Of a DNA stretch of 64,000 nt, positions 569 through 53,704 are shown one piece after another; the stretch's first letter is position 1; each line of letters starts with the position of its first letter. This DNA is from an uncultured Elusimicrobia bacterium (GTDB lineage: Bacteria > Elusimicrobiota > Elusimicrobia > 2-01-FULL-59-12). A program made the position numbers and the translations under genes. Location of the stretch: positions 416,001 to 480,000 of the forward strand of contig OY969767.1 of the NCBI GenBank assembly GCA_963702895.1. Reading direction: 5' to 3'. The notes beneath the pieces were generated by a model. The model was given only the letters and a program-made list of their open reading frames with translations. It searched no databases and was not told the DNA's origin.

Positions 569-651
569 CGTAATATGAAAGCGGGCCTCAAGAGAGTTAT
601 AAACAAGGCTGTCGGTAAAGACACCTTAATAACCCCAGGAGGCCCAAAATC

Positions 652-8500: not shown

Positions 8501-8702
8501 CTAACCGGAAATCTTCGGTTCATTTTTCCTCATTGTCTGAACTCGATGCACTTTTTTGTGCCGTCACCCCGGCGAAAGCCGGCCCTCCAGACGCCCGGCG
8601 GGCCGGGTCGCCGGACTTGTGGAGACCCGGGGTCCAGTTCAACGACGATGGACTGGATCCCGGTTTTCACCGGGATGACGACAACTGCAGATTCCCGGCT
8701 AA
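8501..8702. repeat. Palindromic repeat copy 3 (complete, 202 bp, two 24-bp modules)
   Basis: TIR-like CTAACCGGAAATCT / AGATTCCCGGCTAA; near-identical inverted copy at 24094-24295. Confidence 0.92.
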
Positions 8703-15661: not shown

Positions 15662-15814
15662 ATCCCGCCTCCTTACAAGAGTCTAATATCAGCGTGGGAA
15701 TGAAGCTATAGAACTGACGGGAAAAAGAAAAAGGCCTTTAGACACATAAGATTTTTGTGCCCATACGTTCACTCGGCTCTCTGCTCTGCCGTTCATGTTG
15801 GGGACACCTTTTCA

Positions 15815-15967: not shown

Positions 15968-16053
15968 CTTTGTGGCGCTTAGAATCGGGAGGGCGACAAA
16001 CGCCATGATCCGAAATGGAAAGGAAAAATGTGACGGGACATCAGCAGGCGGTC

Positions 16054-17155: not shown

Positions 17156-17309
17156 TTAGCCGGGAATCTGCAGTTGTCGTCATCCCGGTGAAAACCGGGA
17201 TCCAGTCCATCGTCGATGTACTGGATACCGGCTTCCGCCGGTATGACGGCACTAAAAAGACCAGACATGTCAGTCGATTAACCACGGTCAACCGAACCTT
17301 TCGGGTTAG
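17156..17309. repeat. Palindromic repeat copy 4 (no modules); overlaps 3' end of the GH25 gene
   Basis: TTAGCCGGGAATCTGCAG...GTCATCCCGGTGAAAACCGGGATCCAG...TTTCGGGTTAG. Confidence 0.88.
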
Positions 17310-18492: not shown

Positions 18493-18690
18493 ATAAGCTG
18501 AATTCGGTTACGGGTCGTTTGAAGCGGCCCTGATGAGCCGAAGTGGGGAACCCAAAACGAACCTCGGATGTTACGAGGATCTCGGGGCGAATCCGAGCGC
18601 AGATGCGCTCGTCCGTCAGAAGTGTGGCGGATTGTGTAGGGCCTCCAAGCCCGAGCCCGACAGCTAACCTCGCAAGCGTATAAAACGAGA
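18493..18690 (+). ncRNA. c-di-AMP (ydaO-yuaA) riboswitch
   Basis: GCTGAAT...GGGGAACC...GGGGCGAATC...GTAGGG...CCCGAGCCCGACAGCTAACCTCGCAAGCG; TATAAT at 18482-18487; upstream of KimA-like gene. Confidence 0.9.
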
Positions 18691-18696
18691 GAGCAA

Positions 18697-23086: not shown

Positions 23087-23296
23087 CCGGAATTCCCCAG
23101 TTCGTCACCCCGGCGGATTGTTAGCCGGGGTCTATCATCGACGTAAGAGCATTGATGGATCCCGGGTCTCCACAAGACCGGCGACCCGGCCCGCCGGAAG
23201 TTTGGAGGGCCGGCTTACGACATGCCGGGATGACGGCACAAAAAAGTTCACCTCTGGCAGACGATAGATCGAGTGTGACTGAAGATTTCCGGTTAG
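23083..23296. repeat. Palindromic repeat copy 5 (two modules); end overlaps radical SAM stop codon
   Basis: TTAGCCGGAATT ... GAAGATTTCCGGTTAG. Confidence 0.88.
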
Positions 23297-24093: not shown

Positions 24094-24295
24094 CTAGACG
24101 GGAATCTGCAGTTGTCGTCATCCCGGTGAAAACCGGGATCCAGTCCATCGTCGTTGAACTGGACCCCGGGTCTCCACAAGTCCGGCGACCCGGCCCGCCG
24201 GGCGTCTGGAGGGCCGGCTTTCGCCGGGGTGACGGCACAAAAAAGTGCATCGAGTTCAGACGATGAGGCAAAATGAACCGAAGATTTCCGGTTAG
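24094..24295. repeat. Palindromic repeat copy 6 (near-identical inverse of 8501-8702)
   Basis: Direct sequence comparison. Confidence 0.92.
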
Positions 24296-29067: not shown

Positions 29068-29381
29068 AGAGTTTGGAGAACCATCCCCCGAGGATCCTGG
29101 AGTAACTCCTCATGTCCGACGATCATCGCTTGGCCCACTTCGAATACCCCCATGGAACATTGGCTGTCGCTTGCAGCCTATGGAAGGTTAACGTGCCTTA
29201 ACACCTGCGGCAACTTAAATCGGCCTCAAATCGAGACAGATCATCAATATCTATTGATATTTGAATGAGTTTTGTGAGGGGCTCAGGAAGGCCATTGCCC
29301 TCCGAGAGGAAAATCAAGCCAGGAAGTACCGGACTAACCGGGAAACTGCAGTTGCCGTCACCCCGATTTCTATGACCTCGG

Positions 29382-30407: not shown

Positions 30408-30429
30408 AAGGCTCCTTTTTGTAAGTGCC

Positions 30430-30600
30430 GACATTCGTGATGCGAGCTTTGCCTATTAAGGGTTTTTATGACATCACTTCTATCTAGCTTTGGATCACGA
30501 AAGAATGGGGTCTTTACCGGGGTATGGTTTTCACCTTGGCGAAAGTTAGACTTATTCCATTCTTGTCGGTGTCTTCTTCTAGAGTCTACAAAGACTCGAG
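30430..30600 (-). ncRNA. Bridge RNA with target- and donor-binding loops
   Basis: Guides CUUUCGCC (30538-30545) and ACCCCGG (30517-30523) match the insertion site; UAAUAGG (30452-30458) matches the element end; enclosing stems visible. Confidence 0.85.
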
Positions 30601-30766
30601 AAAAGTCTAATAGGCGAAAGCCGGCCCTCCAGACGCCCGGCGGGCCGGGTCGCCGGACTTGTGGAGACCCGGGGTCCAGTTCAACGACGATGGACTGGAT
30701 CCCGGTTTTCACCGGGATGACGACAACTGCAGATTCCGGGCTAACGGTGTAAGGAAGTGGTCTTGA

Positions 30767-31892: not shown

Positions 31893-32112
31893 CAGGAACA
31901 TCTTTTGTCGTGGGGGAGAGAGGCAGCGAACGACTCGCGGACGGCGGCCGGGTGGTGAGCGCGTCTAGCCGAGGATGGTTGAGCCTCGACCTTTGATGTA
32001 CAGGCAGGAGGCGAGTTCCGCAGGCTGCGCGAACCACCCAGCCGGGGTGTCCGGGAGCGCCGGAGTGAGTCGCCTCCCTCCCCCACGGCAAGAACCCCCG
32101 AAGATTTCCTGC
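31893..32112 (+). ncRNA. Unassigned structured RNA-like element B (paralogue of A)
   Basis: Closing stems CAGGAACATCTT/AAGATTTCCTG and TTGTCGTGGGGGAG/CTCCCCCACGGCAA; shared core CGAGTTCCGCAGGCTGC. Confidence 0.55.
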
Positions 32113-37800: not shown

Positions 37801-40800
37801 AGATTTTATTGAGCCAACGGTTGTAATCAATGTTTCCGAAGGGTATCAGAAAGTGCGTGTAGGACACGAGCCCAGGGGGTGTTAACATCAGAAATAAGGT
37901 GCGCGTAAATATTGCAAACCGATCCATAAGTTGTACTGCATTGCGGATCCACCTTGCCTTTGGGCGGGAGGGACTCTCCACGGCGAGCCCTCGCAACTGA
38001 TCAAATGCCGCGCGGCACTTGTTGATCAGCTCCCTGTTGTCCGAAAGGATCTCATCCATTCTGGGTGGAGTGATCGAACGCAAATCACCGGCGCTCGCGA
38101 TGGTTCTCGGGAGTCCTCCGCGTGCTTCATCGTGCGTATAGAGTCTTCGCGTCCCTCCCAAGGGTTCGCGGCGCTCCAGCGGGCCGGGTCCCAGACTTGC
38201 TTCTGCGTCAGCAGGAACTTTCCTTTCCAAAAGCCTAAAGGCGAAATTAAGAAGCAATATGGTCAAGTATCCAAAAACAACAAGGCCGACTATCTGCATC
38301 GCGAAAAATGAGACGTCTCCGGGGAAAGAAGGTCCCAGCGGCCAGGAGGAAGAGAGCGGCGTCAAAAGCCCCGCGAAAAATGAGACGTCTCCGGGGAAAG
38401 AAGGTCCCAGCGGCCAGGAGGAAGAGAGCGGCATCAAAAGCCCCGCGAGGGCGCTCCCGATCACGAAGGAACCTTCCATGGAGGCCCCGCCGTGGGGTGA
38501 GTCTTCTGCTGAGTCCGGATGAAGTCCTGATGCGGACTCCAAAGAATGACTCTTAGAAAAAGCGTCACGAATATTCTTCACGCGATCCCGGAGTGGCACG
38601 GGGATATCGTTAAGGCTCCGGCGTAGAGACGGCCGCGCTGTGGCATCTGAATAGCGATAGGGAGTGGCATGTTCTCCTTTCTTTTCTTGAATCAAAATCT
38701 TAAACCGCCCAGTATCAGTGCTCTCATCGAGAAAATCTCGCAGCGCTGCAGGTGACTGCCGTTCCGAGTTTGGCCCAAACCGTCCTTTTAAGGCCTGTTC
38801 TCGCACAGAGGTTCCGCTCATCAAATCACGCACCAACCCAAACCACGTCGTGTGGAGCGCTGTGTCTTCCCCGCGATTTGCCAAGGCTGTGAAGTTCAAA
38901 TCCGCCGTAATTTGTTGCTGCAAAATACGTGGGTGATAGGGAGGGGTGAGTTGTTCCTCCAATGGCACCTCTCCTCCATAGATATGGTGTTGAGGTGCTC
39001 CGGTGTGAAGATGTCTGAAAAGATCAGGAGCGCTGTGTCCATAATCCAACGTGAAAATGAACCCGGCTTCAAGGGCGCGACCGACATTTTCGACAAAAGA
39101 ATCCGCTTCGGTGTTGGCGAAGATCGTCCATCTCTGTTGTTCATGGCTTGCCAGGGCTGTGGCATAATCCTCGGCGTTTCGCTGGAGATGCTCGGCGACT
39201 TCAGGAATCTGTTGGGAAGGCACGTAGGTCTCTGTGTAGGTAATGCTGGCAAGCCGGGATTGAATGTCGCCCGGCGGCAGGCCCCCAACCGCCGATAGAT
39301 ATTTTTCAAAGCTTGATCGCGTTAGATACATGACGTTAACGCCGTTCAGCGCTGTCCGATCCCGGACCTCCGCGTCTTGTTGCCGGATGAGATCGTTCAA
39401 TTCCTGTCCGGAACCGATCTCGTCCAAGAGAGCAAGATGTTCAATCGGGATTTGCGGTATAACGAAAGCCACTTCCGCTTCACCTTGTGTTGTCAGAACG
39501 ACTTTGTGGGAGCCTAAATCATCCAGAAGCTCGTTTGTGAAGATCACCCCCTTGATCCTTCCCCCCATTAATGTGGCGAGTTTCGCTTGAGCTTCCCCCA
39601 ATACCGCATCCATTTTCCCTTTGTCAATATAATCACGGCCTTCCGCCGCCTGGCGATCATGTAGGCGAGCAGACTGCTCTATAATCGTGTAATGCAATTG
39701 GTTCCAGAAATCTCGCCATTCTGAGCTGGAACCATGTGAGGCACGGGACTCGACATAGCGCATGACGTCTCGAGAGAGAATGCCCGTTCCACCACCAAAT
39801 TCGACGAAATGAAACACATCCTGGGGCGAGAGGGATTCGTTATGACGCATATGTTGCCACATGCTAAAGAGGTGTTCCGCAATCATTCTCCCGAACAAAG
39901 GAGACAGCTCGACAGGCAGGGTCGAAAAATCTTCGTGGGGACCAATTCCCGCTCGATAACGATAATACAGCTGGTTGACAAGCGACATGAAGTCCTTAAA
40001 AGAGACGAAGAGTTCTGGCGCGACATTCTGCAGACGCTCAGGGAGGGAAATCGGTTCTGAGGGCTCGGCCGCGGCCTCGGTGGCAGGGATATTGCGCTCT
40101 CGGCGGGTGGGTCCGGAAGGATGAGCAGATAAAGGATTTGCAGGACGTGATCCGTCGCCCATTCGAGGCGCCAGGCCAGCGCTATCGGAGGGGCTTTCCG
40201 CCGAGGGTCCGATTCGTCCAGGTTCGGAAGTGACAGAAGCTCCCCCAGTCGGCGACCCCGGGCGGTTCGGAACTGAGCTTGAGTCAGGCGGGGACTGCAA
40301 GCGCTCCTTCATGGTTTTCAAACGTGCCACAAACCGTTCGAAATTTTTTCCCTTCATTCTTGCAGGCAGCCAATCCTGATTACTTTCCAGCCATTCCAAA
40401 AAGGCTTGAATACCGCTGACGAGTTCCTGTCTTACTGCGTCGGCATCTTCGCCTTCTTCAACATAAGGCTCCATAAATGCTTCGTCCGATATTCTGTTGC
40501 TCTGTCGAATCAAGATCTTGAGAAAATCAATCCGGCTGTTCTTATAGAGCTTGTTTTTAAACGGCGGTTCCGTGGCCACGACCGGGAGTAGGAATCGAAT
40601 CCGTTTGGCGATCTGTTTCTGGGGGAAATTTGGCTTTTCGGGAGTTTGAACTTCGAAGATAATCCTCAAGTTGTCCGTGCCGTCAGCCGATTTCGCGGCC
40701 TGAATATGAATGCTGGCCTCGTCGCGAAACCGGCTCCCGTACAGCGCATATCCCGCCTTCTTATAGTTTGTCATCAGGGTAATGATATTGATCAGGCGAT

Positions 40801-43800
40801 GCTCGATCATCCGGAAGGTGTCTCTGATTTCTTGCGCGATTCGATCCCGGTAGGCGACCATGATAGGGTGATCCGCAGGGGGGACCTTTTCCCCGGGATG
40901 GTCGCGCAAAAACATATTGCGGGGTCCATTTTCCAGGACGTCATGAAGCAATCCGCCTCCGATGAGGATGACCGGGTCTCTTTCTCCTTGTCGCAACAGG
41001 AGGGCCATGACGCTGGCAGGATGAACGGCGTAGTCGCGCCCATCCAGCCGTCTTTCGGGATCCCGTCGTTCTCCGTCCTTCGATACGGAGTGAAATTTCT
41101 CCATCAGCCGGATGGCGTCTTGAACCATAATGAGGGACTCTTCATCCTCTTGGCCGGGAGTTCCTTCTGCAAGATCGGAAGGCATGGGTTCATCGATATC
41201 GCCCTCCATCTCCTCGTCGCCCGCAAATGGACTGACCAACTTCTCCATGACCCCATCCAGGAAACGTCTGATTCTCCCTCTCCCAAATTTCTCCTGCAGC
41301 TTTTCGAGGGTCTTGACGGCCGTCGCATCGAAAATATCACCGGGCCCCACTTCGAAATGTTGGATCGACAGGTCGTGCGCTCGCTGCATTTGACCAAGGA
41401 CGCCCTGCAGGATAGTGATCGCGGATATTTCCGGAGCATCTAGCGAGGAAGGGATGGAAAGCGCGAAATTCAGCCAGAGAGTGCCGCTTTCCGTTTCTTC
41501 GTCGATGGTCAACCGCGCAATGTTCGCTAATGGCAATAGTGTGTTCAGGGTCGCAAAGAAATTCTTCATGAGGAGGGGATTGTCGGGAATCTGCACACTG
41601 GCCGTGACCCGTTTGATCGGCCGTGGCCCGGTGTTTGTGGGTGATAGGCGCAAGGCATTCATCTTTTCCACCAGAGACGTCATATCGACGTGGCGGTCTC
41701 TTTGCAGGACGAGACGCAATAGCCCAGTTCCTTCTTCGGCCGGGAGCGTACGCGAGCCTGCCAAGAGACGCGCTCCATGGTCGACGATCAAACCCATCAC
41801 GTGGGCAAAGATGGCTGGCTGATCTTTGGGGACCCGGATCAGGACGACCACCGTGTCCGATGTTTCCGCCGAGAGGTCCAGAGTGGCATTGATTTCGACA
41901 AAATCGGGAGTTGGCGTGTTGGCCTCCGGGGGTGGAAGATCGACGCCCGGCACCGTGGGCGCGATGGGGACGGTCGGAATAGGTGTTGGCAGGGCCTCGG
42001 AGGTCTGTATTGGGGCTGGGCTGGGCTGGACGGCCTCCACTGGCGCGGGCGATGCTGGTCTTTCCAGACGGGTCGCTTTCAAACGGCCTACGACATCGTC
42101 AAACGAGAGGACCCCGCAGGCGATGGCCAGCAGCGCGTATTCCGCATTGGGGACGGGCATTCCCTTCTCTCCAGCTAAGTCAGCAAGGCTGCGGCTGTAT
42201 CGTGCTAATCTGGGAGGAGTCCCGGCATTTTCCAGATCCTGGGTCGCCAGGGCAATCATTTCACCACGAATTTCTTGCCAGAGTGCCTCCTGGCGTTCAG
42301 CCACATAGGTATCGCGATGGGTAAGGCCCATGGCGGCCAGTAGGTGGTCGGCGTCGGGGAAGGAATGCTTCGAGGCCAGCGGCCCGAGGACTTGCCGTAA
42401 GGGCTGAAGCCAATTGGGTGACGGTCCACGGGGACGTGGACCCGTCTCCCTTTGCAGTCGTTCATGCAATTTCTCCGTGCCCTCCGCAGCTAATTCTGCT
42501 AACTGGGAGGCCCGGTCATCACTCTGGCGCAATTCGAATTCGACGAGAGCAGGCAAGGTGGAGGCGGATCTCATCATGGTCCGCAAGGACGCTGGGTTAT
42601 GTCTGATTGAAGCACCCTCCCTATCGGGCACATTGTCTGGCTTCACCTCATCTCCGTCTTCCAGTCGATATCCGAGGTCGACCCAGAATCCTCGATGCCT
42701 TCCCCGCGAAATATTGGCTCCACGGGTCCGGGGCCCCAAGGCGTTCATTTGCGCCAGGGCATCCGCCACGTTGCCTCTTCTTGACCCTCCTTTGGGGACG
42801 CACGCCGGAATCAAGTTTTCAGTATGTTCGTCGAACGGAGCGTGGAAGAAAAAAATGAAGGGATTAACGAGCTTTTCTCCAAATTTATTGAAAGTTCCTC
42901 GAGGGTCACGCTCATCCGGTTCAAAAGGATCATAGGCAGGGAGGACAAGAGTCAGCTGCTGTACCAGATAAGCCCAGCGGGCTTTTGTTGGACCGTAGCG
43001 GTATCGCCAATAAGCGTCCTGGTCATCGAAAATCTGGAATTCGTGCGGCCGGCGCTCGCCTGTTAACACGCGTTCGAACGAGGTGTGAAACGCCCAGTCC
43101 ATGCGTGAGGGGTCCGTCTGGTATTCGAAATGCTTCGCGATCCTGGCAGTCACATCGTTCTGTTGATCTGCATTGGTGAGAATAACGCTAAACCGCAGGA
43201 TGTCCCTTATCTCGCCGACGTGGCCATACCCCCTCTTGTCCGATCTCAGTTTGCGCATGACGGCGCCAACAGTTTTCAAGTTCCACGAAATTACCACTCC
43301 CTCGGGCAAGTCCTTTTGAATATCTCGTGCAGTCTTGTCCAGATAATCTCTCATCTCCGGCCAGGACATTTTGTATTCGGCTTGGATATCAGCATTCATC
43401 TTGGCATAGGCAGTAGGATCCGCCAATTGCTCGGCTTCATCCAGCAGTGAAGTGCTCAAGCCGGGCATGCCGAGGCGCTCGAGCAGGGGGACGTACACTT
43501 CGCTGATTTCGCGGTAGGTCTCATGCAGGACGTCGGAAGACACATTCGCTCCTTTCATCGTGGCCAATTTGGTTGCCATGGTCAGCAAAAGCACATCCAG
43601 AGAGCCCGCCTTTTTCGCATAGTGACCCATCAGATCCGGAATGGCCCAGCGGTGCTTGTCCAGCTGCTCTTTTGTCAGTCCGTAGCTCGTCGGGAACGTC
43701 TTGTTTACTTTTTCAGTCACTGCGAGCAGCCTGTCTTTTTCAGCTTTTTGGAGTCCCATTCGGCGTCGTTCCGATTCAGTGGTGCGGAGGAGGAACGCCG

Positions 43801-44803
43801 CGGCTAAGACATCAGGATCCACTTCGAGATTCAAGGCGCGAATCATCAAACGGTATTTCGCTGCGACATCGCTGCAGAACGTAGAATCCTCACTCCCTTG
43901 GCCCATATCGCGCTGGCTATAGATCTGGGCGGCTGCGGCGCGAGCTTTCTCCACGATCAGAGGATCTCTCGGGGGCGTTTGTTCGTCGGGGGCTGGTTGG
44001 CCGGCCGGATCCGGCGCTGACCCGGAGGGGGATGCGTCCATGATGGCAGGTACTCGAGTCCAGTCGCGGTTATTCATTTCATGGTAATAGGTGCTGAGCC
44101 AGAGGCCCGGAAGCGTGAGCAGAGGTGTGGCCAGCGCCGCAAGAAGCGCCGCTGTGGCCGGATCGGCGTGCGGGGCAAAAACGCGCGCAAACACCAGAGC
44201 GGCTCCCAGCGTGGTCGCTAGGAATACCCCGGTCAGGCTTCTGGCTGTCTGCCGCACTTCGTCACGCTGAGCATCCGTGAGGTTCCAGCCTGTCCGGTGG
44301 TCGATTCTGTGCCGGGAAACGAAATAAGGGATGCTGGTACGGTAAGCCAGGTAACCCAATCCGCCGGCAACGGCCATGCCGATCCCAACCAGGGGCGCGC
44401 CGGTCACGCCCAGTTTGATCAGGGAGGCGATGGCTGCAAGGGAACCGGCGGCGGCCCCGGTCCAGGGCAAGTAACGGACAAGGAATTCCTGCTCGCCAGG
44501 CTCGGAAATTTCGCGGTTGATACGCGCCGTGAAATCTCTGTACATTCCGGCAAAGGACTGGAAAGGCTGAAGTTTAATGAGCCGCGCGGCAAGCGCGGCG
44601 GGGGCCAGAGCGTCTTCCTGGAAGCGCGCGTTCTGAAATGAGGTGGATGCGGAGGTCGTCGGTGAAAGGCTTTGACCCGCCGCAAACGATAAAGCGTGCG
44701 GGTCTGCGGCAAGCGCGAAGACGAGAATCAGCGATGTCAGCCGGTAAAAGGTTCGATTCATAAGAATCCCAAACACGCCTGCGCGCGCGTTCGATAGGTT
44801 CAT
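34829..44803 (-). CDS. Giant 3324-aa multidomain membrane protein (RelA/SpoT-like, TGS, ACT, HD hydrolase, MidA/NDUFAF7 methyltransferase); start may be ATG 44761
   Basis: 10 kb uninterrupted ORF; KTVGAVMRK/IRDIL/HEFQI; YAVHP..LLHDVLEN..KSADGTDN; VEFGGGTG..TNELLD..TLDYGH..ITADLNF. Confidence 0.85.
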   Translation of the reverse strand: MNLSNARAGVFGILMNRTFYRLTSLILVFALAADPHALSFAAGQSLSPTTSASTSFQNARFQEDALAPAALAARLIKLQPFQSFAGMYRDFTARINREISEPGEQEFLVRYLPWTGAAAGSLAAIASLIKLGVTGAPLVGIGMAVAGGLGYLAYRTSIPYFVSRHRIDHRTGWNLTDAQRDEVRQTARSLTGVFLATTLGAALVFARVFAPHADPATAALLAALATPLLTLPGLWLSTYYHEMNNRDWTRVPAIMDASPSGSAPDPAGQPAPDEQTPPRDPLIVEKARAAAAQIYSQRDMGQGSEDSTFCSDVAAKYRLMIRALNLEVDPDVLAAAFLLRTTESERRRMGLQKAEKDRLLAVTEKVNKTFPTSYGLTKEQLDKHRWAIPDLMGHYAKKAGSLDVLLLTMATKLATMKGANVSSDVLHETYREISEVYVPLLERLGMPGLSTSLLDEAEQLADPTAYAKMNADIQAEYKMSWPEMRDYLDKTARDIQKDLPEGVVISWNLKTVGAVMRKLRSDKRGYGHVGEIRDILRFSVILTNADQQNDVTARIAKHFEYQTDPSRMDWAFHTSFERVLTGERRPHEFQIFDDQDAYWRYRYGPTKARWAYLVQQLTLVLPAYDPFEPDERDPRGTFNKFGEKLVNPFIFFFHAPFDEHTENLIPACVPKGGSRRGNVADALAQMNALGPRTRGANISRGRHRGFWVDLGYRLEDGDEVKPDNVPDREGASIRHNPASLRTMMRSASTLPALVEFELRQSDDRASQLAELAAEGTEKLHERLQRETGPRPRGPSPNWLQPLRQVLGPLASKHSFPDADHLLAAMGLTHRDTYVAERQEALWQEIRGEMIALATQDLENAGTPPRLARYSRSLADLAGEKGMPVPNAEYALLAIACGVLSFDDVVGRLKATRLERPASPAPVEAVQPSPAPIQTSEALPTPIPTVPIAPTVPGVDLPPPEANTPTPDFVEINATLDLSAETSDTVVVLIRVPKDQPAIFAHVMGLIVDHGARLLAGSRTLPAEEGTGLLRLVLQRDRHVDMTSLVEKMNALRLSPTNTGPRPIKRVTASVQIPDNPLLMKNFFATLNTLLPLANIARLTIDEETESGTLWLNFALSIPSSLDAPEISAITILQGVLGQMQRAHDLSIQHFEVGPGDIFDATAVKTLEKLQEKFGRGRIRRFLDGVMEKLVSPFAGDEEMEGDIDEPMPSDLAEGTPGQEDEESLIMVQDAIRLMEKFHSVSKDGERRDPERRLDGRDYAVHPASVMALLLRQGERDPVILIGGGLLHDVLENGPRNMFLRDHPGEKVPPADHPIMVAYRDRIAQEIRDTFRMIEHRLINIITLMTNYKKAGYALYGSRFRDEASIHIQAAKSADGTDNLRIIFEVQTPEKPNFPQKQIAKRIRFLLPVVATEPPFKNKLYKNSRIDFLKILIRQSNRISDEAFMEPYVEEGEDADAVRQELVSGIQAFLEWLESNQDWLPARMKGKNFERFVARLKTMKERLQSPPDSSSVPNRPGSPTGGASVTSEPGRIGPSAESPSDSAGLAPRMGDGSRPANPLSAHPSGPTRRERNIPATEAAAEPSEPISLPERLQNVAPELFVSFKDFMSLVNQLYYRYRAGIGPHEDFSTLPVELSPLFGRMIAEHLFSMWQHMRHNESLSPQDVFHFVEFGGGTGILSRDVMRYVESRASHGSSSEWRDFWNQLHYTIIEQSARLHDRQAAEGRDYIDKGKMDAVLGEAQAKLATLMGGRIKGVIFTNELLDDLGSHKVVLTTQGEAEVAFVIPQIPIEHLALLDEIGSGQELNDLIRQQDAEVRDRTALNGVNVMYLTRSSFEKYLSAVGGLPPGDIQSRLASITYTETYVPSQQIPEVAEHLQRNAEDYATALASHEQQRWTIFANTEADSFVENVGRALEAGFIFTLDYGHSAPDLFRHLHTGAPQHHIYGGEVPLEEQLTPPYHPRILQQQITADLNFTALANRGEDTALHTTWFGLVRDLMSGTSVREQALKGRFGPNSERQSPAALRDFLDESTDTGRFKILIQEKKGEHATPYRYSDATARPSLRRSLNDIPVPLRDRVKNIRDAFSKSHSLESASGLHPDSAEDSPHGGASMEGSFVIGSALAGLLMPLSSSWPLGPSFPGDVSFFAGLLTPLSSSWPLGPSFPGDVSFFAMQIVGLVVFGYLTILLLNFAFRLLERKVPADAEASLGPGPLERREPLGGTRRLYTHDEARGGLPRTIASAGDLRSITPPRMDEILSDNRELINKCRAAFDQLRGLAVESPSRPKARWIRNAVQLMDRFAIFTRTLFLMLTPPGLVSYTHFLIPFGNIDYNRWLNKISVVVFEEEAPGHQTSIASSMDNKIFIGRKLAERLTPDQLAGLLARKMIEIQAKHIVRDNNLRWSSLVERIERIAKAEEIRIAGPGQLRGTSSIDDVIRYIQYESNPLRTSAPITHTWQNAQHVMQWVMKILASSRGSPSLIAIDRTTAWEQTLEALIWLGHPLSVYDGLPGSGISDPESEFIAFERTLLTELEFGAPNIDDQNIRGRFIVTWNRLRGSSESLERVRRLETLNPKDLLAHLIVLFMFRRRDLPLLLNQFWISGEKIENRSNLQYAAQALSTPFGPKIHDLLNALSDIWPLLSKKEYGGLLGGLGTLLRSLTEFSESMTGTRGAIPTVSNVLSNLIREWKPDESTPRRTIKSKSVYTALEKAIREIAGLRETIPLSMILGVTFDPLRRISVHPDLEIALHYYEHIKEHVIPGAEIFKQCLIRYTQMLQRYPGDASAALQESSRYYRGSLKQRREADPIQISDWLEGPGAIEIPIHLRQYSNAMESRMRCWKEVRAGLASLLIDPNLVALRSHEKIDPQFLKLLEMEGTIRLRSDEQLSKESEIIATSLRSVLLSIVEAIQRLHLEARKKHTHQQAQMLTGLRDEIERLTDNLLTLQNLTREIQRQSLKSELVILDAAYKPFESLFVGFPGTHGSLDFTYRYRQHILHNIRAYWENPWIHAVYAFLKTEENRGRDRLARFSIARSQEGPLLATSNVYSVRSELDFLPAFLMYMKVWADVSGRPIIFPATLFDKDADKVLGAGYQLVKTPLESPLSLVIPNTEDGGIFHSELTPGNPTFPVKVVLDKYFVYTPDPAIQAQRRERMIREFSPTSEPRIGRPARKNSETASQEGMFTILSAIVGFLPLVDAHHFGLRQMLVVIAATGIFYLAHVGLHLALGGGLRLLAGKNFYEKAHLWLTQGYRENPPEIGSDVRLALFYFLPGAIQFLTGAILLNLAPLGASQSALLTAFGAVNLIQGMTIFFGADHRHGKKYLPSMRSVFRSA
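38300..38448. repeat. In-frame 72-bp tandem duplication within the giant gene
   Basis: AGLL(M/T)PLSSSWPLGPSFPGDVSFF twice. Confidence 0.92.
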
Positions 44804-45552: not shown

Positions 45553-46212
45553 ATGGAACTTGACGACCTGCGAAGGCGCGTGGCCGGGGAAGAATTCGAC
45601 TATCAGATGCTGATGGACGTTTTGCGGGGGTATGACCGTCCCCGGGACAAGGTCCGCGCGCTGCTCAAAAAGAAGTCGATCATACGGGTTAAGAAGGGCC
45701 TGTATGTCTTCGGAGAAACGCTGGCCAGGCGTTCCTATTCCCGGGAAGTCCTGGCCAATCTCATTTACGGACCTTCCTACATTTCTCTGGATTACGCGCT
45801 CCATTACCATGGGCTGGTTCCCGAGCGGGTGGAAAGTATCACCTGCTGTACCCCGGGCCGCGGGCGCCAATTTTCGACCCCCATCGGCCGTTTCAGCTAT
45901 CGCCAGATTCCTGCCGCCGCGTACGCGCTGGGAATAGACCAGGTGAAACTGGATGAGGGCCGCGCGTTTTTAATCGCGGTCCCGGAAAAAGCACTTGCCG
46001 ACAAGCTGGTGGCCGATCGGGGGACCGCCATCGCGAGTCCGGCCGAACTGAAGACGTATCTCGTCCATCACCTTCGGGTTGATCTGGAGGAATTGGCCGG
46101 TATGCAATCCAGTCTGATGGCGCGGATCGCTGTCGCTTATCGTTCCCGAAAACTCCACTGGCTTAGTCAGTTGATCCATCCATCGGCAGGAGGGAAAACC
46201 CATGATGAATGA
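45553..46212 (+). CDS. AbiEi-type antitoxin (type IV TA)
   Basis: IIRVKKGLY, PSYISLDYALHYHGLVPE, IAVPEKALAD. Confidence 0.85.
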   Translation: MELDDLRRRVAGEEFDYQMLMDVLRGYDRPRDKVRALLKKKSIIRVKKGLYVFGETLARRSYSREVLANLIYGPSYISLDYALHYHGLVPERVESITCCTPGRGRQFSTPIGRFSYRQIPAAAYALGIDQVKLDEGRAFLIAVPEKALADKLVADRGTAIASPAELKTYLVHHLRVDLEELAGMQSSLMARIAVAYRSRKLHWLSQLIHPSAGGKTHDE

Positions 46213-47071
46213 GGCCGTCGTCCGGATGCTCGCCCGCTATGAAAGCCGGACCGTGGAGGATCGCGTCCAGGCGCTGCGTGAAATCCTGCAAGAAATCGCC
46301 CTGCTGGGACTCTGGCGCAGCAAGTTTTTCGACAAAGCGGCCTTCTACGGCGGGACGTCCCTGCGGCTCCTGTATGGGCTCGACCGGTTTTCCGAAGACC
46401 TGGACTTCTCACTCTTGCGGCCGATGCCGGGCTTTGACCTGCGGCAGTATGCGGGCGCCCTGGAGCGGGAAATCGCCTCGTTCGGCTTTGATGTGCGGCT
46501 TGAAAAGAAAGAGAAAACAGCCGAGAGCAGAATCCAGTCCGCCTTCCTCAAGGCCGACACCGCAAAGCACCTCCTGGTGGTTGAAACCGCCGAAGCGCTC
46601 CTGCGAAAGATCCCGCGCGGGCAGATCATCAAAATCCGCCTCGAAGTCGACACCGACCCGCCGCCCGGATTCGAAACGGAAAATAAGTTTCTCCTGCATC
46701 CCATTCCGTTTGGGGTCCGCACCTACGTCCTGCCGGATCTTTTCGCGGGGAAGATGCACGCGGTCCTTTGTCGACGCTGGAAGAACAGAGTCAAGGGCCG
46801 CGACTGGTACGATCTGGTGTGGTATGCCGCCCATCATCCAAAACTGCATGCGGCGCATCTGGCGCAGCGCATGCTCCAGAGCGGCGATCTGAAAACTGGC
46901 GTCTCTCTGACGCAAGATCAGTGGATGGACATGGCCCATGCCGCCGTTGACCAGCTCGACGTCGCGATGGCCAGAAAAGAAGTCGAACCCTTCGTGAAAA
47001 ACCCGTACGCGTTGAAGGCCTGGTCACCGGCGTTTTTTCACGACGTCCTTAAACGGGTCGTCCTCGTTTAA
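46202..47071 (+). CDS. AbiEii/AbiGii nucleotidyltransferase toxin
   Basis: FYGGTSLRLLYGLDRFSEDLDF; K..A...R; RDWYD. Confidence 0.92.
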   Translation: MMNEAVVRMLARYESRTVEDRVQALREILQEIALLGLWRSKFFDKAAFYGGTSLRLLYGLDRFSEDLDFSLLRPMPGFDLRQYAGALEREIASFGFDVRLEKKEKTAESRIQSAFLKADTAKHLLVVETAEALLRKIPRGQIIKIRLEVDTDPPPGFETENKFLLHPIPFGVRTYVLPDLFAGKMHAVLCRRWKNRVKGRDWYDLVWYAAHHPKLHAAHLAQRMLQSGDLKTGVSLTQDQWMDMAHAAVDQLDVAMARKEVEPFVKNPYALKAWSPAFFHDVLKRVVLV

Positions 47072-47099: not shown

Positions 47100-47115
47100 C
47101 TAACCGGAAATCTTC
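47100..47115. repeat. Terminus of repeat copy 10, interrupted by the group II intron (arm continues 48998-49042)
   Basis: CTAACCGGAAATCTTC identical to 8501-8516; 3' exon TTCCT..GTCTGAAC..GCACTTTTTTGT aligns with 8526-8559. Confidence 0.85.
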
Positions 47116-48997
47116 GTGCGCCAGGACAAACTGCACTGAACCCAGTGGATGAAAGATCCACGGCCCAAGGCCTAGCCAGCCAGGGCATAGCTCGTCTTGC
47201 ATCGACGGCCGTGAGGTCGGAGGCGAAGCGTAGACAAGCGACAACGTAGGCCGCAAGGTGATAAACCGATGGAGCCCCGAAAAGAACGGTAATGTTGTGG
47301 AAGCCGAGGCTGTGAAGATCGCCGAAGGCAACAAGGTTCCAGCCAAGACGGCAGGGAGGGAGCCTTTCCGCCGGGGTCGTACGAGGGCGGCATGTGTTGA
47401 AGGGACAGTGACGGGACCTGGGAGGCCTGCCGGGAGTCTGGGAGACTGGACACCGCCAACCCGAGGGACAACCAAAGGGAAACGGACCGGCAGGAGTCAG
47501 AGAACCCCATAGTACCTGAGAAGCGGGTAACGACCGTGGAGGGAAGGGGGCGACAGGAGGAGGAAGCGATGGAGGGACAGGGAGCTGATTCACAGAAGTC
47601 AGAGACTTCCTTAACGAAACTCCGGCGCGTAGCGGAGCAAGCGAAGCAGAATCAGAAGATGCGCTGGATATCGGTCAATCACCTCATGGACACCGACCTG
47701 TTGCGGGACAGTTGGAAACGGATCCGCAAGAGCGGAGCCAGCGGGGTGGATGGCCAGACAGCGCAGGCATACGGACAAGACCTAGAGAAGCGGTTGGAAG
47801 AGCTTCATGAGCGACTGAAGGCGGGGACGTACCGGGCACCGCCGGTAAGGCGGGTGTGGATTCCCAAGGCGGACGGCAGGCAACGGCCGATCGGGATACC
47901 GACGTTGGAGGATAAGATCGTCCAACGGGCGGTGGCCACGATCATGGAAGCGGTGATGGAGCCGTTGTTTCTGGAGAGTTCGTACGGGTACCGGCCTGGG
48001 CGGAACGCCCATCAGGCGCTGTGGTCCATACAACGGACGCTGATGTATCAGCCGATCCACTGGGTGCTGGAGATCGACCTGGAGTCGTTCTTTGACACCT
48101 TGGATCACGGATGGCTGAGACGGATGGTGGACGTACGGATGGGCGATGGGGTGATCCAGCGGCTGATCGGGAAATGGCTGAGTGCGGGAGTGATGGAGGA
48201 AGGAAGGGTGACGCGAACGGATCAAGGGAGCCCGCAAGGCGGTGTGATTTCGCCGATGTTGGCGAATATTTATCTGCACTACGGGATAGACCTGTGGTTT
48301 GCGAAGGTCATCCAACCGAAACTCAAGGGAGAATCGTACGCGTGGCGATATGCGGACGATATCCTGATGGCGTTCGAGCATGAAGCGGAGGCGCGCGAGG
48401 TCCAAAGGCAGCTTGGGGAGCGTTTGGCGAAGTTTGGCCTTAAGCTCAACCCAAGCAAGACACGCCTGATCCGGTTTGAGAGGCCACGAGACACAAACGG
48501 GGACGATCCGCCGGATCGGAGCGCGTTCGACTTTCTGGGGTTCACGCATTACTGGGCGAGGAGTCGACGAGGGATGTGGGTGGTGAAGCGGAAGACCGCC
48601 GGGAAGCGATTACGGCGGGCGATGAGTGCGGTGACGCAGTGGTGTAAAGCACACCGGCACTGGAAGCTCCGCGAACAGCACCAACACCTGAATGCGATTC
48701 TTCGAGGGCATTACCAGTATTACGGGATGACCTGGAACTGGGTTGGACTGAGCGTCTTTCACCTGCATGTGGTCAGAACGTGGCAGAGATGGTTGAGCCG
48801 CCGGAGTCAGACGGCTTACATTCACTGGGATCGGATGGAACAGATCCTGGAGAACTATCCCTTGCTACCTCCAATCATTATTCATCCTGATCCATGGCGC
48901 ATGGCACGTGAGTCCTTTTCTTGAAGAGCGTCGTGCGGGAAATCCGCACGCGGCGTTCTGTGAGGGGGCGGGAGGGCGACCTCCCGCTCTACTCGAT
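47116..48997 (+). mobile_element. Group II intron (bacterial, IIB-like, no En domain)
   Basis: 5' GTGCG; domain V GAGCGTCGTGCGGGAAATCCGCACGCGGCGTTC; domain VI ending CTACTCGAT; EBS1 GAAGAT 47314-47319. Confidence 0.93.
47569..48924 (+). CDS. ltrA: Group II intron reverse transcriptase/maturase
   Basis: GVDG, RPIGIPTLEDKIVQ, GSPQGGVISP, YADD, FDFLGF, X domain. Confidence 0.96.
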   Translation: MEGQGADSQKSETSLTKLRRVAEQAKQNQKMRWISVNHLMDTDLLRDSWKRIRKSGASGVDGQTAQAYGQDLEKRLEELHERLKAGTYRAPPVRRVWIPKADGRQRPIGIPTLEDKIVQRAVATIMEAVMEPLFLESSYGYRPGRNAHQALWSIQRTLMYQPIHWVLEIDLESFFDTLDHGWLRRMVDVRMGDGVIQRLIGKWLSAGVMEEGRVTRTDQGSPQGGVISPMLANIYLHYGIDLWFAKVIQPKLKGESYAWRYADDILMAFEHEAEAREVQRQLGERLAKFGLKLNPSKTRLIRFERPRDTNGDDPPDRSAFDFLGFTHYWARSRRGMWVVKRKTAGKRLRRAMSAVTQWCKAHRHWKLREQHQHLNAILRGHYQYYGMTWNWVGLSVFHLHVVRTWQRWLSRRSQTAYIHWDRMEQILENYPLLPPIIIHPDPWRMARESFS

Positions 48998-49228
48998 CAT
49001 CGGCCAGTTCCTACCGTCTGAACCTGCCGCACTTTTTTGTCCCCTCTCCCGCCGCCAGGTGGGAGACCCGCGCTTCCGCAATTTCCTATAGCGCGCAGGT
49101 CCCACGGTCGTAAGTGGGAGGGTAAAGGGTGAGGGCAAGAGGCCACTGTCTCGGTGGCTGCGGAGTATCACTCGACTGCGGTGGATAAGGCCAGACTTTG
49201 AAATGATAAACTTGAAGCCTTCAATCCC

Positions 49229-50746
49229 ATGACGACACGCAAACGCATCGTGATTGTCGGTGCCGGCCCAGGGGGGCTGACCAGTGCCATGATCCTCGCC
49301 CACCGCGGTTTTGATGTCTCTGTGTACGAAAAGAATGCCGAGGTCGGCGGACGCAACGCCCCTCTACGCCTGGGGAACTACACCTTCGACACCGGCCCCA
49401 CGTTCCTCATGATGCGGTTCATCCTCGAGGAGATGTTCCAGGAAGCCGGCCACAAAGCCTCCGAGTATCTCGAATTCCGCGCTCTGGATCCGATGTATCG
49501 CCTGGTCTTCGACGACCGGGAGATCCTCGTGTCGTCCAACCCGGAGACGATGCGCGAACAGCTGCGCGCCGCCTTCGCGGAAAAGGACGCCGGCCTCGAC
49601 GCGTTTCTGCGGGAGGAAGGCAAACGCTTCGAGATGCTCTACCCCTGCATTCAGAGGGACTACGCGACCCTGGGTTCGATGTTGTCGATGGATCTGTTGC
49701 GCGCCTTTCCGTACCTTGCGGTCACGAAAACCGTCTTCCAGAACCTCGGTCGTTACTTTAAGGAAGAGAAGCTGCGCATGGTGTTCTCCTTCCAGTCGAA
49801 ATATCTCGGGATGTCGCCGTGGCAATGCCCGGCCTTCTTCACCATGCTGCCCTACATCGAGCACCGCTACGGGATCGAGCACGTAATCGGGGGCCTGAAC
49901 CGCATCTCCGCCGCGATGGCCCAGGCCGCCCGGGCCGAGGGCGCCGAGATTCGTTTGAAGACGCCGGTGGAAAAGCTCCTCCTCAACGGCCGCCGGGTGA
50001 CGGGGGTGAAGCTGGCCAGCGGTGAGGAGATCGCCGCCGATGCCGTCTTTTTAAACGCGGATTTCGGCCATGCGATGTCGCATTTGGTCCCGGAGGGGGT
50101 CCTGCGCAAATACGCCCCCGCCAAGCTGCGCCGGAAGGACTATTCCTGCTCCACGTTCATGATGTATCTCGGGCTCGACAAGCGCTATCCCCTCAACCAC
50201 CACACGATCATTTTCGCCAAGGACTACCGGAGTAATGTGAACGCCGTGTTTGGACAAGGGTCCCTCACCTCGGATCTTTCGGTGTATGTCCAGAACGCCT
50301 GCGTCAGCGATCCCACACTCGCGCCGGAAGGCCACTCCACCCTCTACATCCTCGCCCCGGCCCCGAACAACGATTCCGGGCTCGATTGGCCGGCCACCCA
50401 AACGGCATTCCGCAAGAACGTTTTGAGAATCATCAAAGAGCGCCTGAAACTGCCGGACCTGGAGGAGCACATTCGTGCCGAACGGATCATCACCCCGAAC
50501 GATTGGGAGCAGCAGGGCTCGATCTTCAAAGGCGCGACGTTCAACCTGTCCCACAAGTTCACGCAACTGCTCTACCTGCGGCCGCGCAATCGTTTTGAAG
50601 AACTCCAGGGCGTCTACCTCGTCGGCGGGGGGACGCACCCCGGCAGCGGCCTGCCGACGATTTTTGAATCGGCCCGCATCTCCTCCAATCTTTATTGCCA
50701 GGACACTGCTGTGCCCTTCCCGCCGCCCGCCGCGTTGAGGACCTGA
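49229..50746 (+). CDS. crtN: CrtI-family desaturase, probable C30 diapophytoene/squalene desaturase
   Basis: GAGPGG, FDTGPT, VGGGTHPGSGLP; operon context. Confidence 0.8.
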   Translation: MTTRKRIVIVGAGPGGLTSAMILAHRGFDVSVYEKNAEVGGRNAPLRLGNYTFDTGPTFLMMRFILEEMFQEAGHKASEYLEFRALDPMYRLVFDDREILVSSNPETMREQLRAAFAEKDAGLDAFLREEGKRFEMLYPCIQRDYATLGSMLSMDLLRAFPYLAVTKTVFQNLGRYFKEEKLRMVFSFQSKYLGMSPWQCPAFFTMLPYIEHRYGIEHVIGGLNRISAAMAQAARAEGAEIRLKTPVEKLLLNGRRVTGVKLASGEEIAADAVFLNADFGHAMSHLVPEGVLRKYAPAKLRRKDYSCSTFMMYLGLDKRYPLNHHTIIFAKDYRSNVNAVFGQGSLTSDLSVYVQNACVSDPTLAPEGHSTLYILAPAPNNDSGLDWPATQTAFRKNVLRIIKERLKLPDLEEHIRAERIITPNDWEQQGSIFKGATFNLSHKFTQLLYLRPRNRFEELQGVYLVGGGTHPGSGLPTIFESARISSNLYCQDTAVPFPPPAALRT

Positions 50747-50750
50747 TCGG

Positions 50751-52202
50751 GTGGACCCTGTCTCCTTAGCCCGGGAGGCCGCCCGCGACTGGCGAGGCCG
50801 GCCCCTTTCCGAGCGCCTCACCTTCTTCAAACGCCTGCGGCTGGTCCTCGCGCGGGATCGCGAACAGCTGGCGCACGAGCTCAGCCAAACGGCAGGCATG
50901 GTCCCTATGGAAGCGCTCTTGAGCGAGCTCTTCCCTGTCCTTGACCTGTTGAAGTACTACGAACGAGAGGCGCCCCGCATCTTGCGCCCGCGGACCCTGG
51001 GCTCGTCGATGAACTACCCTCACACGAAGGCCGAAACGCGCTACCGTCCTTACGGCGTCGTGCTGGTGGTGGCGCCCTCCAACTTCCCTTTCCAGCTTTC
51101 CATTGTCCCGGCCCTCTCGGCCGCCCTGGCGGGGAACGCGGTCGTCGTCAAAGTTTCCGAACTGCGGCCCGGGGTCACTCCGCTTCTGCGGGCTTGTGTC
51201 GAAAAAGCAGGCTTCCCCCCGAACCTTATTCAGTTTCTGGATGGAGGCGCCGAGACCGTGCGGGGATTGATCGGCGCTGGTCCCGACAAAATCTTTTTCA
51301 CGGGCGGTGAGCGCGCGGCGCGAGAGATCCTCAAAGAGGCCGCGGAACGCCTCATCCCCGCGGATATGGAGCTGGGAGGAAGCGATCCCATGATCGTGTT
51401 GGACGACGCGGACCTGGAGCGCGCCAGCCGCGGAGCGGTGTACGGGTCATTCTGCAACTCGGGCCAGGTCTGTGTGTCCGCCCGGCGCCTCTTTGTCCAG
51501 GCCTCCGTTTATGACGCCTTTTTAAGCCGCGTGCTCAAAGAAGTCCCGACGCTGCGGCAGGGACCCGGACTCGAATCGGAACTACCGCGCTTAATTTCGC
51601 CCCAGAGCGTGGATCGCTTGAAAAGCCTGGTGGAAGAGGCCGTGCGCGAAGGCGCCCGTTTGCTCACGCCCTGGCAATGGAAAGACGGTTTCCTGGCGCC
51701 GCTCGTCCTGGCGGACGTTGCGCCCGGCATGCGGATGATGAAAGAAGAAGTCTTCGGTCCTCTCATGATGCTCGCGCCCTTTCGCCAGGACGACGAGGCC
51801 ATCGCCCTGGCCAACGCGAGCCCCTTTGGACTCAACGCCAGCGTGTGGAGCCGCAACCTGAAGCGCGCTCAGGCGGTCGCGGCCCGGCTCGAAGCGGGCA
51901 GCTGCGCGATTAATGACGTTCTCAAGAACATCGGCCGCCCCGAGCTCCCGTTTGGCGGGGTAAAGAAGAGCGGCTTCGGCCGTTACCATGGGCCGGAAGG
52001 GCTTCTGGCCTTCTCGCAGACCTACGCGGTCGTCGAAAACAGCGCCCGGTCGTCTTCGGAGGTGAATTGGTTCCCTTATTCCGCGGAACGGTTCCGCCAC
52101 CTCTCGAATTTCATGGCGCTGCGGTTCGGCGAAGGCTCTTTCCTGGGCAAGATGTGGCGGTACCGTGAAACACTCCGATACTTCCGGGAGGTCATGAAAT
52201 GA
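50751..52202 (+). CDS. Aldehyde dehydrogenase (diapocarotenoid aldehyde dehydrogenase AldH/CrtNc-like)
   Basis: FTGG, MELGG, NSGQVC, EEVFGP, PFGGVK.SG.GR. Confidence 0.88.
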   Translation: MDPVSLAREAARDWRGRPLSERLTFFKRLRLVLARDREQLAHELSQTAGMVPMEALLSELFPVLDLLKYYEREAPRILRPRTLGSSMNYPHTKAETRYRPYGVVLVVAPSNFPFQLSIVPALSAALAGNAVVVKVSELRPGVTPLLRACVEKAGFPPNLIQFLDGGAETVRGLIGAGPDKIFFTGGERAAREILKEAAERLIPADMELGGSDPMIVLDDADLERASRGAVYGSFCNSGQVCVSARRLFVQASVYDAFLSRVLKEVPTLRQGPGLESELPRLISPQSVDRLKSLVEEAVREGARLLTPWQWKDGFLAPLVLADVAPGMRMMKEEVFGPLMMLAPFRQDDEAIALANASPFGLNASVWSRNLKRAQAVAARLEAGSCAINDVLKNIGRPELPFGGVKKSGFGRYHGPEGLLAFSQTYAVVENSARSSSEVNWFPYSAERFRHLSNFMALRFGEGSFLGKMWRYRETLRYFREVMK

Positions 52203-53704
52203 TTCCACGAAAAGAAAAGGTTGTCGTCATCGGCGGGGGGCTGGGCGGCCTGTCGGCCGCGATTTCGTTGGCGACGGAGGGCTTTTCGGTCCGACTTCTT
52301 GAGAAAAACGACAAGCTCGGCGGCAAACTCAACGTCCTCACCAAAGACGGCTTCACCTTCGACCTGGGGCCTTCCATTCTCACACTGCCCCATTTCTTCC
52401 GGCGTTTGTTCGAAAAGGCGGGACGCCGGATGCAGGATTACGTCAAAATCTTCGAGCTCCAGCCGCATTGGCGCAACTTTTTCGAAGACGGCGCAGTGAT
52501 CGACCTCTCGTCCGACATGCGGGTGATGGAGGATGAACTCCGCAAAGTCACCCCGGAAGAGGCGCGCGGCTTCTACGCTTTTCTCGACTACTCCCGCAAG
52601 CTCTACGCGCTCACCGACTCCGGCTATTTCGAGAAGGGGCTGGAATCCTTCGGCGAACTCGTGCGCCATTACGGCATGAGGCAGAGCCTCGGCTTTGACG
52701 CCTTCCGGACGCTCGATGCCGGTGTCCGGCGGTTTGTCCCGGCGGGCAAGCTCGCCGACATTCTCAATTACTTCATCAAGTACGTGGGCTCGTCCCCGTA
52801 CGATGCGCCCGCCCTTTTGAACCTGATCCCGTACGCCCAATTCGGATACGGACTCTGGTATGTCGAGGGAGGGATGTACGCGCTCGCGGGCGCCTTGCAG
52901 AAGCTGGCGGGGGAGCTGGGGGTGACCTGCACGGTCGGCGAGGAAGTCTCAGAGATTCTCCAGGCCGGCTCCCGGGCCACGGGCGTACGCACCCGGAGCG
53001 GAAGCGTGATCGCCGCCGACATCGTGGTCTCCAACATGGAAGTGATCCCGGCGCACGAACGCTTGCTGAAGACGCCGCCGGCCCTCATGGCCCGTCTGGA
53101 GCGTTTCGCCCCCTCGTGTTCCGGATTTGTCCTGCATTTAGGGGTCCGCCGCCAGTATCCGCACCTGGCGCACCACAATTTCTTCTATTCCCGGGATTCG
53201 AAAAAACATTTCCGCACCATCTTCCACGACCACACGCTGTCCCAGGATCCCACCATTTATCTCGTCGCGCCCACCCGGACGGATCCCGCGCAGGCGCCGG
53301 CCGGGTGTGACGTCATCAAGATTCTGCCGCATATCCCGTCCCTGGACGCGCAACATCCTTTCAGTTCTGCCGACTTTCAGGCTTACCGGGAACGGGTGCT
53401 AACAAAACTCGAACGCATGGGCCTCACGGATTTGCGCAAGTCCATCGTGTGCGAGGACCAATGGACGCCGGCCGATATTCAGGCGCGCTATTACTCGAAC
53501 AAAGGCTCGATCTACGGCGTCCTCTCCGATCGCTGGAAGAACCTCGGTTTTAAGGCGCCCCGGCGCAGCCCGCTGTGCCCCAACGTCTATTTTGTGGGCG
53601 GAAGCGTGAACCCCGGCGGCGGCATGCCGATGGTGGTGCTCTCCGGCCAGCTCGTCCGGGACAAAATCCTTCAGGACCTCTCTGGCGGCCGGCCTTCCAC
53701 TTAA
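52199..53704 (+). CDS. crtP: Diapolycopene/diaponeurosporene oxidase (CrtP/CrtNb)
   Basis: GGGLGGLSAA, FDLGPSILT, FVGGSVNPGGGMPMVVLSG. Confidence 0.82.
   Translation: MIPRKEKVVVIGGGLGGLSAAISLATEGFSVRLLEKNDKLGGKLNVLTKDGFTFDLGPSILTLPHFFRRLFEKAGRRMQDYVKIFELQPHWRNFFEDGAVIDLSSDMRVMEDELRKVTPEEARGFYAFLDYSRKLYALTDSGYFEKGLESFGELVRHYGMRQSLGFDAFRTLDAGVRRFVPAGKLADILNYFIKYVGSSPYDAPALLNLIPYAQFGYGLWYVEGGMYALAGALQKLAGELGVTCTVGEEVSEILQAGSRATGVRTRSGSVIAADIVVSNMEVIPAHERLLKTPPALMARLERFAPSCSGFVLHLGVRRQYPHLAHHNFFYSRDSKKHFRTIFHDHTLSQDPTIYLVAPTRTDPAQAPAGCDVIKILPHIPSLDAQHPFSSADFQAYRERVLTKLERMGLTDLRKSIVCEDQWTPADIQARYYSNKGSIYGVLSDRWKNLGFKAPRRSPLCPNVYFVGGSVNPGGGMPMVVLSGQLVRDKILQDLSGGRPST

Follow-up and report, generated by a model that had tools for sequence, protein, structure and literature searches.

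A group II intron predicted to retrohome into the terminal inverted repeats of IS1380-type MITEs in an Elusimicrobia genome

What brings a group II intron in the genome of an uncultured Elusimicrobia bacterium into the end of a short non-coding repeat, and what fixes its position within that end? The locus lies in a 64,000-nt stretch of contig OY969767.1, here called the window, which belongs to a closed genome of 2.72 Mb (G000). A first-pass annotation read from the letters of the window had proposed that the intron homes into a multicopy non-coding repeat rather than a gene. Our analysis supports that kind of target and points to the TIR of a probably IS1380-derived MITE, with homing predicted. 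We hold it likely that the intron uses ordinary endonuclease-independent retrohoming into MITE TIRs, with EBS1, EBS2 and EBS3 predicted to pair with the end. The guide bases match the end and change when the end changes, which makes RNA-guided homing into these ends likely.

The intron and its landing site

The element is an intact endonuclease-less group II intron (Table 1) for which splicing and mobility are predicted. It has 5' GUGYG and 3' AY termini, domains I, V and VI with a bulged A, and an RT/maturase ORF in domain IV. Rfam models RF02005 (47152-47386, 128.5 bits) and RF00029 (48924-48997, 47.3 bits) both match. No endonuclease domain was detected in the 451-aa RT/maturase, for which Pfam gives RVT_1 only.

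The first-pass annotation had placed both intron limits correctly, along with the ATCTTC exon and its complementary GAAGAT, which pair at 6/6 positions. RNAalifold with three relatives locates GAAGAT in a 10-nt terminal EBS1 loop closed by GGC/GCC, so the doubt raised with that claim, that the motif might lie elsewhere, falls away. The 3-bp alpha pairing is conserved among the same three relatives, without covariation. The proposed EBS2, CGGT, gains one compensatory change in L007, an 80% identical intron of genome G343 (CAGGU against exon CCTG). The probable delta-prime position is A in L007 and C, a mismatch, in the G000 copy at 229533. EBS3, absent from the earlier reading, is assigned to position 47379 from its pairing state with the +1 base. 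Position 47291 was considered and rejected, as were 47358-47359, which form a stem with a compensatory change. EBS2a, as set out in the accessible portion of PMC8643678, was not identified in the window intron.

Three empty copies of the site had been listed in the window. The exact 16-mer is indeed present at 8501, 23281 and 24280, but the +1 bases there are G, A and G. They are imperfect targets because EBS3 G47379 requires C; EBS3 narrows the good targets of the window copy to 8/44 empty ATCTTC ends. A shorter match, at 32100-32109 on the minus strand, had been listed as well. It is a bare 10-mer with 33 copies genome-wide; lacking YTAR-CC and the repeat interior, it is no repeat end and is a chance match. 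Allowing up to 3 mismatches, the window contains 10 instances of the 16-nt site where 0.6 would be expected, and 0/100 shuffles reach that number.

Table 1. Features of the intron, its host repeat and the empty repeats of the window
Feature	Position	Strand	Basis or remark
Group II intron	47116..48997	+	1882 nt, GTGCG...CTCGAT; intact
5' exon: outer 12 bases of IS1380-type TIR (CCGGAAATCTTC)	47104..47115	+	
IBS2 (ACCG), predicted EBS2 partner	47103..47106	+	sequence; compensatory change in L007
IBS1 (ATCTTC)	47110..47115	+	
Probable delta-prime (G), facing delta U47313	47271	+	inferred
EBS2 (CGGU)	47287..47290	+	
EBS1 (GAAGAU)	47314..47319	+	inside 10-nt terminal loop 47311-47320
Terminal loop with probable alpha-prime (GGC)	47345..47354	+	3 bp with GCC at 47175-47177
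EBS3 (G), pairs with +1 C	47379	+	co-variation with +1 across copies
RT/maturase ORF, 451 aa, YADD motif	47569..48924	+	TIGR04416 359 bits, cut-off 300
Domain V: AGC triad, 5-nt GAAAU loop	48926..48958	+	Rfam match, sequence
Domain VI with bulged A48991	48962..48994	+	Rfam match, sequence
IBS3 (C48998) and inner 5 TIR bases (CATCG; consensus NGTTG)	48998..49002	+	
YTAR target-site duplication (CTAA), MITE left end	47100..47103	+	
MITE interior with CCCTCTCCC-type hairpin	48998..49140	+	empty sibling at G000 647572 shares 94% identity across 114 nt
Empty MITE (CTAA/CTAA), ATCTTC|G end and ATCTGC|A end	8501..8702	+	
Empty MITE	24094..24295	-	99% identical to 8501-8702
Repeat copy, empty ATCTTC|A end at 23296	23103..23296	-	left limit approximate
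Empty MITE (TTAG/TTAG)	17156..17309	+	

Guide bases and occupied ends

G000 contains three intron copies: 463116, which is the one in the window, 1961796, which departs from it at a single base of 1882 nt, and 229533 (94.5% identical). Of these, 3/3 start after base 12 of the same TIR end. The two copies outside the window also lie in this repeat family, at the identical position, which removes the earlier reservation that they might lie in unrelated sequence. Variant A (463116 and 1961796) carries EBS1 GAAGAU and EBS3 G at ATCTTC|C ends, with 6/6 EBS1 pairs, and variant B (229533) carries EBS1 GCAGUU and EBS3 U at ATCTGC|A, with 5/6. Relative to A, the 229533 copy combines A to C at EBS1 position 2 with T to G at exon position -2, and G to U at EBS3 with C to A at +1; its delta pair is absent and one EBS1 base is mismatched.

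Complementarity between EBS3 and +1 holds in 5/5 complete introns with both bases read (the three copies, L007 and the more distant L002). Position 47379 is G with +1 C in two copies and L002, and U with +1 A in 229533 and L007. Both A copies occupy ends with the uncommon +1 C (P about 0.04). Contig pieces from two public sequencing runs have T at 47379, so the EBS3 U/+1 A state common to the relatives is probably ancestral and the window's G/+1 C derived. Among sequencing runs, no RNA run was found to contain the sequence and every share was 0.13 or less; fragments from the four runs searched reach neither intron junction, so neither occupied nor empty alleles were seen in them. EBS2 pairing involves only 3-4 bases, and in copy 1961796 it is shifted by one base and weaker. 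The co-variation of guides with site comes from few, related sequences. Occupancy is low, at 2/10 good ends for variant A and 1/~30 for variant B.

Across 81 nt the exons of the two A copies share 91% identity, and near-identical introns within less similar exons fit two separate insertions. Between the A and B ORFs, codon differences are 49 synonymous and 13 non-synonymous, which we count in favor of retrohoming. Since dnaA lies at 2.61 Mb and the skew peaks near 1.3 Mb, only 2/3 copies are on the lagging-strand template, an uninformative count.

All copies found in three genomes lie within such TIRs (3/3 in G000, 1/1 in G343, 6/6 of the 5' junctions in G040). The L007 intron of G343 follows base 12 of a perfect TIR pair bearing a CTAG/CTAG duplication. 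In genome G040 a 92-98% relative of L007 is represented by six 5' and six 3' junctions, of which ten fall at contig ends. Five of the 5' junctions are at base 12 and one at base 11 of a one-base-shorter end, and all six 3' junctions start AG[TC][TC]G. This intron is known from its junctions alone, as its body is unassembled and its EBS1 not readable. Relatives P0001-P0005 are 81-93% identical, and a close full-length IEP occurs in only 2/401 genomes. The next relative, L002 (58%), lies at a different sequence, GGGGACA|C, so IS1380-end targeting is seen only in a tight clade. A metagenome scan with the 5'-end pattern gave 125 loci; those with an aligned ORF are 31-43% relatives in unrelated exons, none of them close. 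Viral contigs yielded no match, and the best protein identity on plasmids was 50%. Among fragmented assemblies, the intron 5' domain was not found in G369, G251, G108, G020 or G006, nor the L007 intron in G403, G046 or G019.

Distant introns of the same Rfam type (L031-L152, about 40% identical) show recurring exons of their own: AAYAGGGGA, GACCCnnAGCGGA and GGTTTTCGGCT..GTGGCGTCCC, the last being similar to the terminus of DGR variable regions. Their class may often target repeats. The published boundaries of the g1 intron Rh.js.I1 (L243, NC_008270) make it overlap an annotated IS1380 transposase gene at that gene's end.

What weighs most against strict pairing is L007, in which EBS1 GAGAAA pairs with the AAGTTC exon at only 3/6 positions. 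The IS1380 end might instead be recognised mainly by protein or DNA structure (the YTAR-CC motif, the TIR hairpin), in the way that terminators and attC sites are recognised by class C introns, with EBS1 only fixing the exact bond. Such recognition would agree with the correct placement of the G343 copy on just three EBS1 pairs, the constant position in G040 despite a variable IBS1 (AAATCC, AAACTC, AAAATC, AAATTC), the near-constant YTAR-CC among occupied sites and an insertion position maintained across 20% protein divergence. However, EBS1 and EBS3 co-vary with the site within one genome, and at one G040 site and copy 1961796 the spacing is shifted, yet insertion still follows the C of IBS1. 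An EBS1 reading GARUUU would pair with all G040 sites. GAGAAA matches the TTTTTC ends of genome G403, so the G343 copy may be an off-target insertion. We regard recognition mainly by protein or structure as unlikely, and favor guidance by base pairing.

The MITE ends and their 5' stubs

The dispersed repeat is a MITE: short, non-coding and multicopy, bounded by TIRs of ~17 bp (CCBGRAWNNTKC-NGTTG) and flanked by 4-bp target-site duplications (TSDs) of the form YTAR. With insertion after base 12, the intron splits the TIR and is not at its edge. A matrix trained on 61 exact ends, which are included in its count, finds about 124 ends in G000 against 2 in a shuffled genome. The ends pair into elements mostly of 146-210 bp with REP-like hairpins inside, including 8 elements of 146 bp and 5 of 194 bp. 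Identical 4-mers flank 33/48 short paired elements (permutation mean 9.8, maximum 22); four of these pairs are non-consensus, ATAA, CTTA and TTAT among them. Two intron-bearing MITEs have matching TSDs, and no right TIR was found for the window's intron-bearing MITE, whose right end is lost.

The same end motif bounds short paired elements in further genomes of the phylum; at least one exact 16-nt match occurs in 70/401 Elusimicrobiota genomes, many of them single chance matches. In G251 the motif flanks a transposase scoring as IS1380 (NF033539 244 bits, cut-off 180). Of 20 loci examined for this IS1380 subfamily, 11 carry an end that differs from the 16-nt motif at no more than one base, and 5 have none, several being cut by contig ends; the matching ends continue AGT, mostly AGTTG. 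On this evidence the MITE is probably derived from IS1380, with mobilisation by an IS1380 transposase predicted. No cognate IS1380 transposase was found in G000: the best match there reaches 24% identity and is bounded by different ends, which suggests that the MITEs are orphaned. The resident IS1380 (about 1.8 kb) and DDE_Tnp_1 element (about 1.27 kb), both present as 7 copies of uniform length, were rejected as partners, having other ends and longer duplications. Long TIR-bounded elements were also set aside as autonomous partners, as they contain IS110 genes inserted into MITEs. Searches for a MITE transposase with PF13546 and PF05598 gave no matches, and with PF01797 one weak match.

A different origin would make the repeat REP-like or attC-like, or moved by the resident IS110 recombinases, with a convergent match to IS1380 ends. 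The REP-like hairpins of the MITE interiors would suit this origin, as would the 13/13 IS110 matches that fall within these repeats and the identical 4-mers at only 2/7 IS1380 relatives with both ends seen. The direct 4-bp duplications, including the non-consensus pairs, speak against it, as do the AGT continuation at the 11/20 matching IS1380 loci and the fact that the IS110s have their own ends inside the MITEs. We consider it highly improbable. Most doubtful of all, and disfavoured, is a single MITE entry followed by multiplication of the intron as cargo through MITE transposition or gene conversion: recent MITE amplification (the 146-bp and 194-bp classes) and the matching TSDs would allow it, but exons diverge far more than introns, three copies occupy two end types, the TIR is split by the intron and G000 has no detected cognate transposase.

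Under retrohoming guided by pairing, the intron would be transcribed by read-through, probably from the AbiE operon ending at 47071. This AbiEi/AbiEii operon is on the same strand 44 nt upstream, with no terminator-like site found between it and the intron. The RNA would splice with the help of its own RT, and the RNP would reverse-splice into single-stranded TIR DNA at a replication fork, where the nascent strand would prime cDNA synthesis. Every MITE presents one end per strand in an intergenic position, which makes targets plentiful at little cost. A few EBS1/EBS3 base changes could shift the intron between TIR subtypes, and insertion, by splitting the TIR, would hinder transposition by that end.

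Some MITE ends in four genomes (G000, G040, G369 and G403) carry 3-8-nt stubs of the intron 5' end in place of 5-6 TIR bases. The stub search covered 30 genomes selected for having the ends. At G000 179882 an 8-nt 5' stub, GTGCGCCA, replaces the inner TIR, and at 2280595 a 9-nt remnant joining both intron termini, GTACTCGAT, stands before AGTAG; chance expectations among 154 ends are ~0.002 and ~0.0006, and both are probable intron scars. In G040, 14 matches to the end plus GTGC include 4 intron 5' ends and 9 stubs continuing into MITE sequence, of which two have one base changed and two form palindromes. The palindromes (L304, L312) consist of the outer 12 TIR bases and a GTGCGC stub duplicated head to head. 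Of ten matches in G369, 9 are 3-6-nt stubs spread over two MITE subfamilies and the tenth lacks the repeat interior; G403 has 2 stubs. Since neither G369 nor G403 yielded an intron, reading their stubs as scars is indirect. Rejected candidates were the 'GTCCGCC' ends of G376 and G210, which are hairpins, and the one-mismatch matches L293, L295, L296 and L299, which have no repeat interiors.

We read the stubs as probable traces of insertions that failed or were lost. They may have arisen by abortive homing, by a later deletion between microhomologies or by the amplification of a single scarred MITE. We tentatively raise a broader possibility, which we think less probable than not, that a class E lineage is a lasting IS1380-end specialist that re-tunes EBS1/EBS3 to TIR subtypes and whose failed insertions leave 3-8-nt 5' stubs (GTG, GTGC, GTGCGC, GTGCGCC) in place of 5-6 RNP-covered TIR bases. 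In that model the growing strand would stall at ~+6 and switch to the intron 5' end through 1-4 nt of microhomology. The length replaced is close to the +5 and +7 target limits given for RmInt1 and RmInt2 in the available text of PMC4615759. If the reading is true, retrohoming rewrites transposon ends and destroys its own targets, and stubs record past intron activity even in genomes without an intron. If the stubs reflect abortive retrohoming, they would expose a step of endonuclease-independent mobility and a route for introns to alter transposon ends.

Neighbours, class and known systems

Other elements share the repeat. An IS1111-type IS110 (window 414-1924; G000 645877, 671274, 2232482 and 2427247), with subterminal repeats and a 3' non-coding region, is inserted 2-4 nt from the intron site in the same TIR. 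Its two variants divide as the intron's do: CTGC ends hold 3 copies and CTTC ends 2. The hairpins inside the MITE have received two more types of IS110, one in 5 copies and the other in 3 (window 29334-30744 and 7 other G000 loci). One small repeat is thus a landing pad for a retroelement and three IS110 types. The IS1111-type elements IS4321 and IS5075 target transposon TIRs, the ends of Tn21. Like them the window intron parasitises transposon ends, but they act through a DNA recombinase and guide RNA, whereas the intron is a retroelement.

The window has other content. The AbiEi/AbiEii genes (45553-47071), a type IV toxin-antitoxin pair directly upstream of the intron, lie between two MITE copies. 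At 15795-15989, 11-nt tandem arrays (ATGAATAGGTG) adjoin a GGGGACACC motif resembling the L002 intron target. A 3324-aa ORF (34829-44803, minus strand) has, by eye, a RelA/SpoT-like N-terminal region and hydrophobic stretches. A carotenoid desaturase cluster (crtI family, TIGR02734) with an aldehyde dehydrogenase-like gene occupies 49229-53704, and a c-di-AMP riboswitch match with long insertions (RF00379, 56 bits) lies at 18486-18693.

The intron itself is probably class E. Its IEP groups with S.me.I4 at 95/97 support, apart from anchors for g1, g2 and g3 that were chosen from PMC3552965 (Table S2), in a tree with one class E anchor, most rows picked by similarity to the query and no basal class F (Ge.ur.I1, Pe.th.I2, So.us.I2), g4, A, C or D anchors. 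Identity is 45% to S.me.I4, located on pRmeGR4b, versus 30-33% to the g1-g3 anchors. S.me.I4 is named class E in the available text of PMC5894124. Section 4 of PMC3753933 gives a 5-nt DV loop and a terminal stem-loop alpha-prime as IIE/IIF features; the window intron has the GAAAU 5-nt DV loop, the terminal-loop alpha-prime (shared with IIF) and no endonuclease domain. Like the class E introns S.me.I4 and Cl.be.I2 (PMC3753933, sections 4, 11 and 15), it combines RT-X without En with these features, and it matches the same Rfam D1 model as S.me.I4, although its IEP is only 45% identical to that of S.me.I4.

Class C was rejected. Class C introns have a short EBS1 and no EBS2 according to section 4 of PMC3753933, and insert at terminators and attC sites according to the accessible part of PMC4424553. 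The window intron resembles them in being En-less with multicopy non-coding targets, but has a 6-nt EBS1 and an EBS2, and no terminator-like site was found upstream.

The literature covered (mostly open-access papers, mostly titles and abstract openings) yielded no report of group II introns in IS1380 or MITE ends, of 5'-stub footprints or of IS-end targeting by class E introns. The only published example of homing into inverted repeats found there is RmInt2 of Sinorhizobium meliloti GR4, which in experiments retrohomes into both inverted repeats of ISRm17 (available parts of PMC4615759 and PMC5894124). On those accounts, the window intron is like RmInt2 in being En-less, in having all copies in the inverted repeats of a mobile element with one end per strand, and in its EBS1-3 pairing with a relaxed EBS2. 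Unlike RmInt2, a class D intron whose target ISRm17 is an autonomous IS, it groups with class E and targets the ends of non-coding IS1380-type MITEs; its mobility is predicted, and within one genome it comes as two variants, each matched to its own end subtype. These form a natural retargeting pair whose empty sites include both predicted and unpredicted ones, which makes the pairing rules of class E, a little-studied class, directly testable. Homing into transposon ends is a known strategy, to which the window intron adds an independent class and target family.
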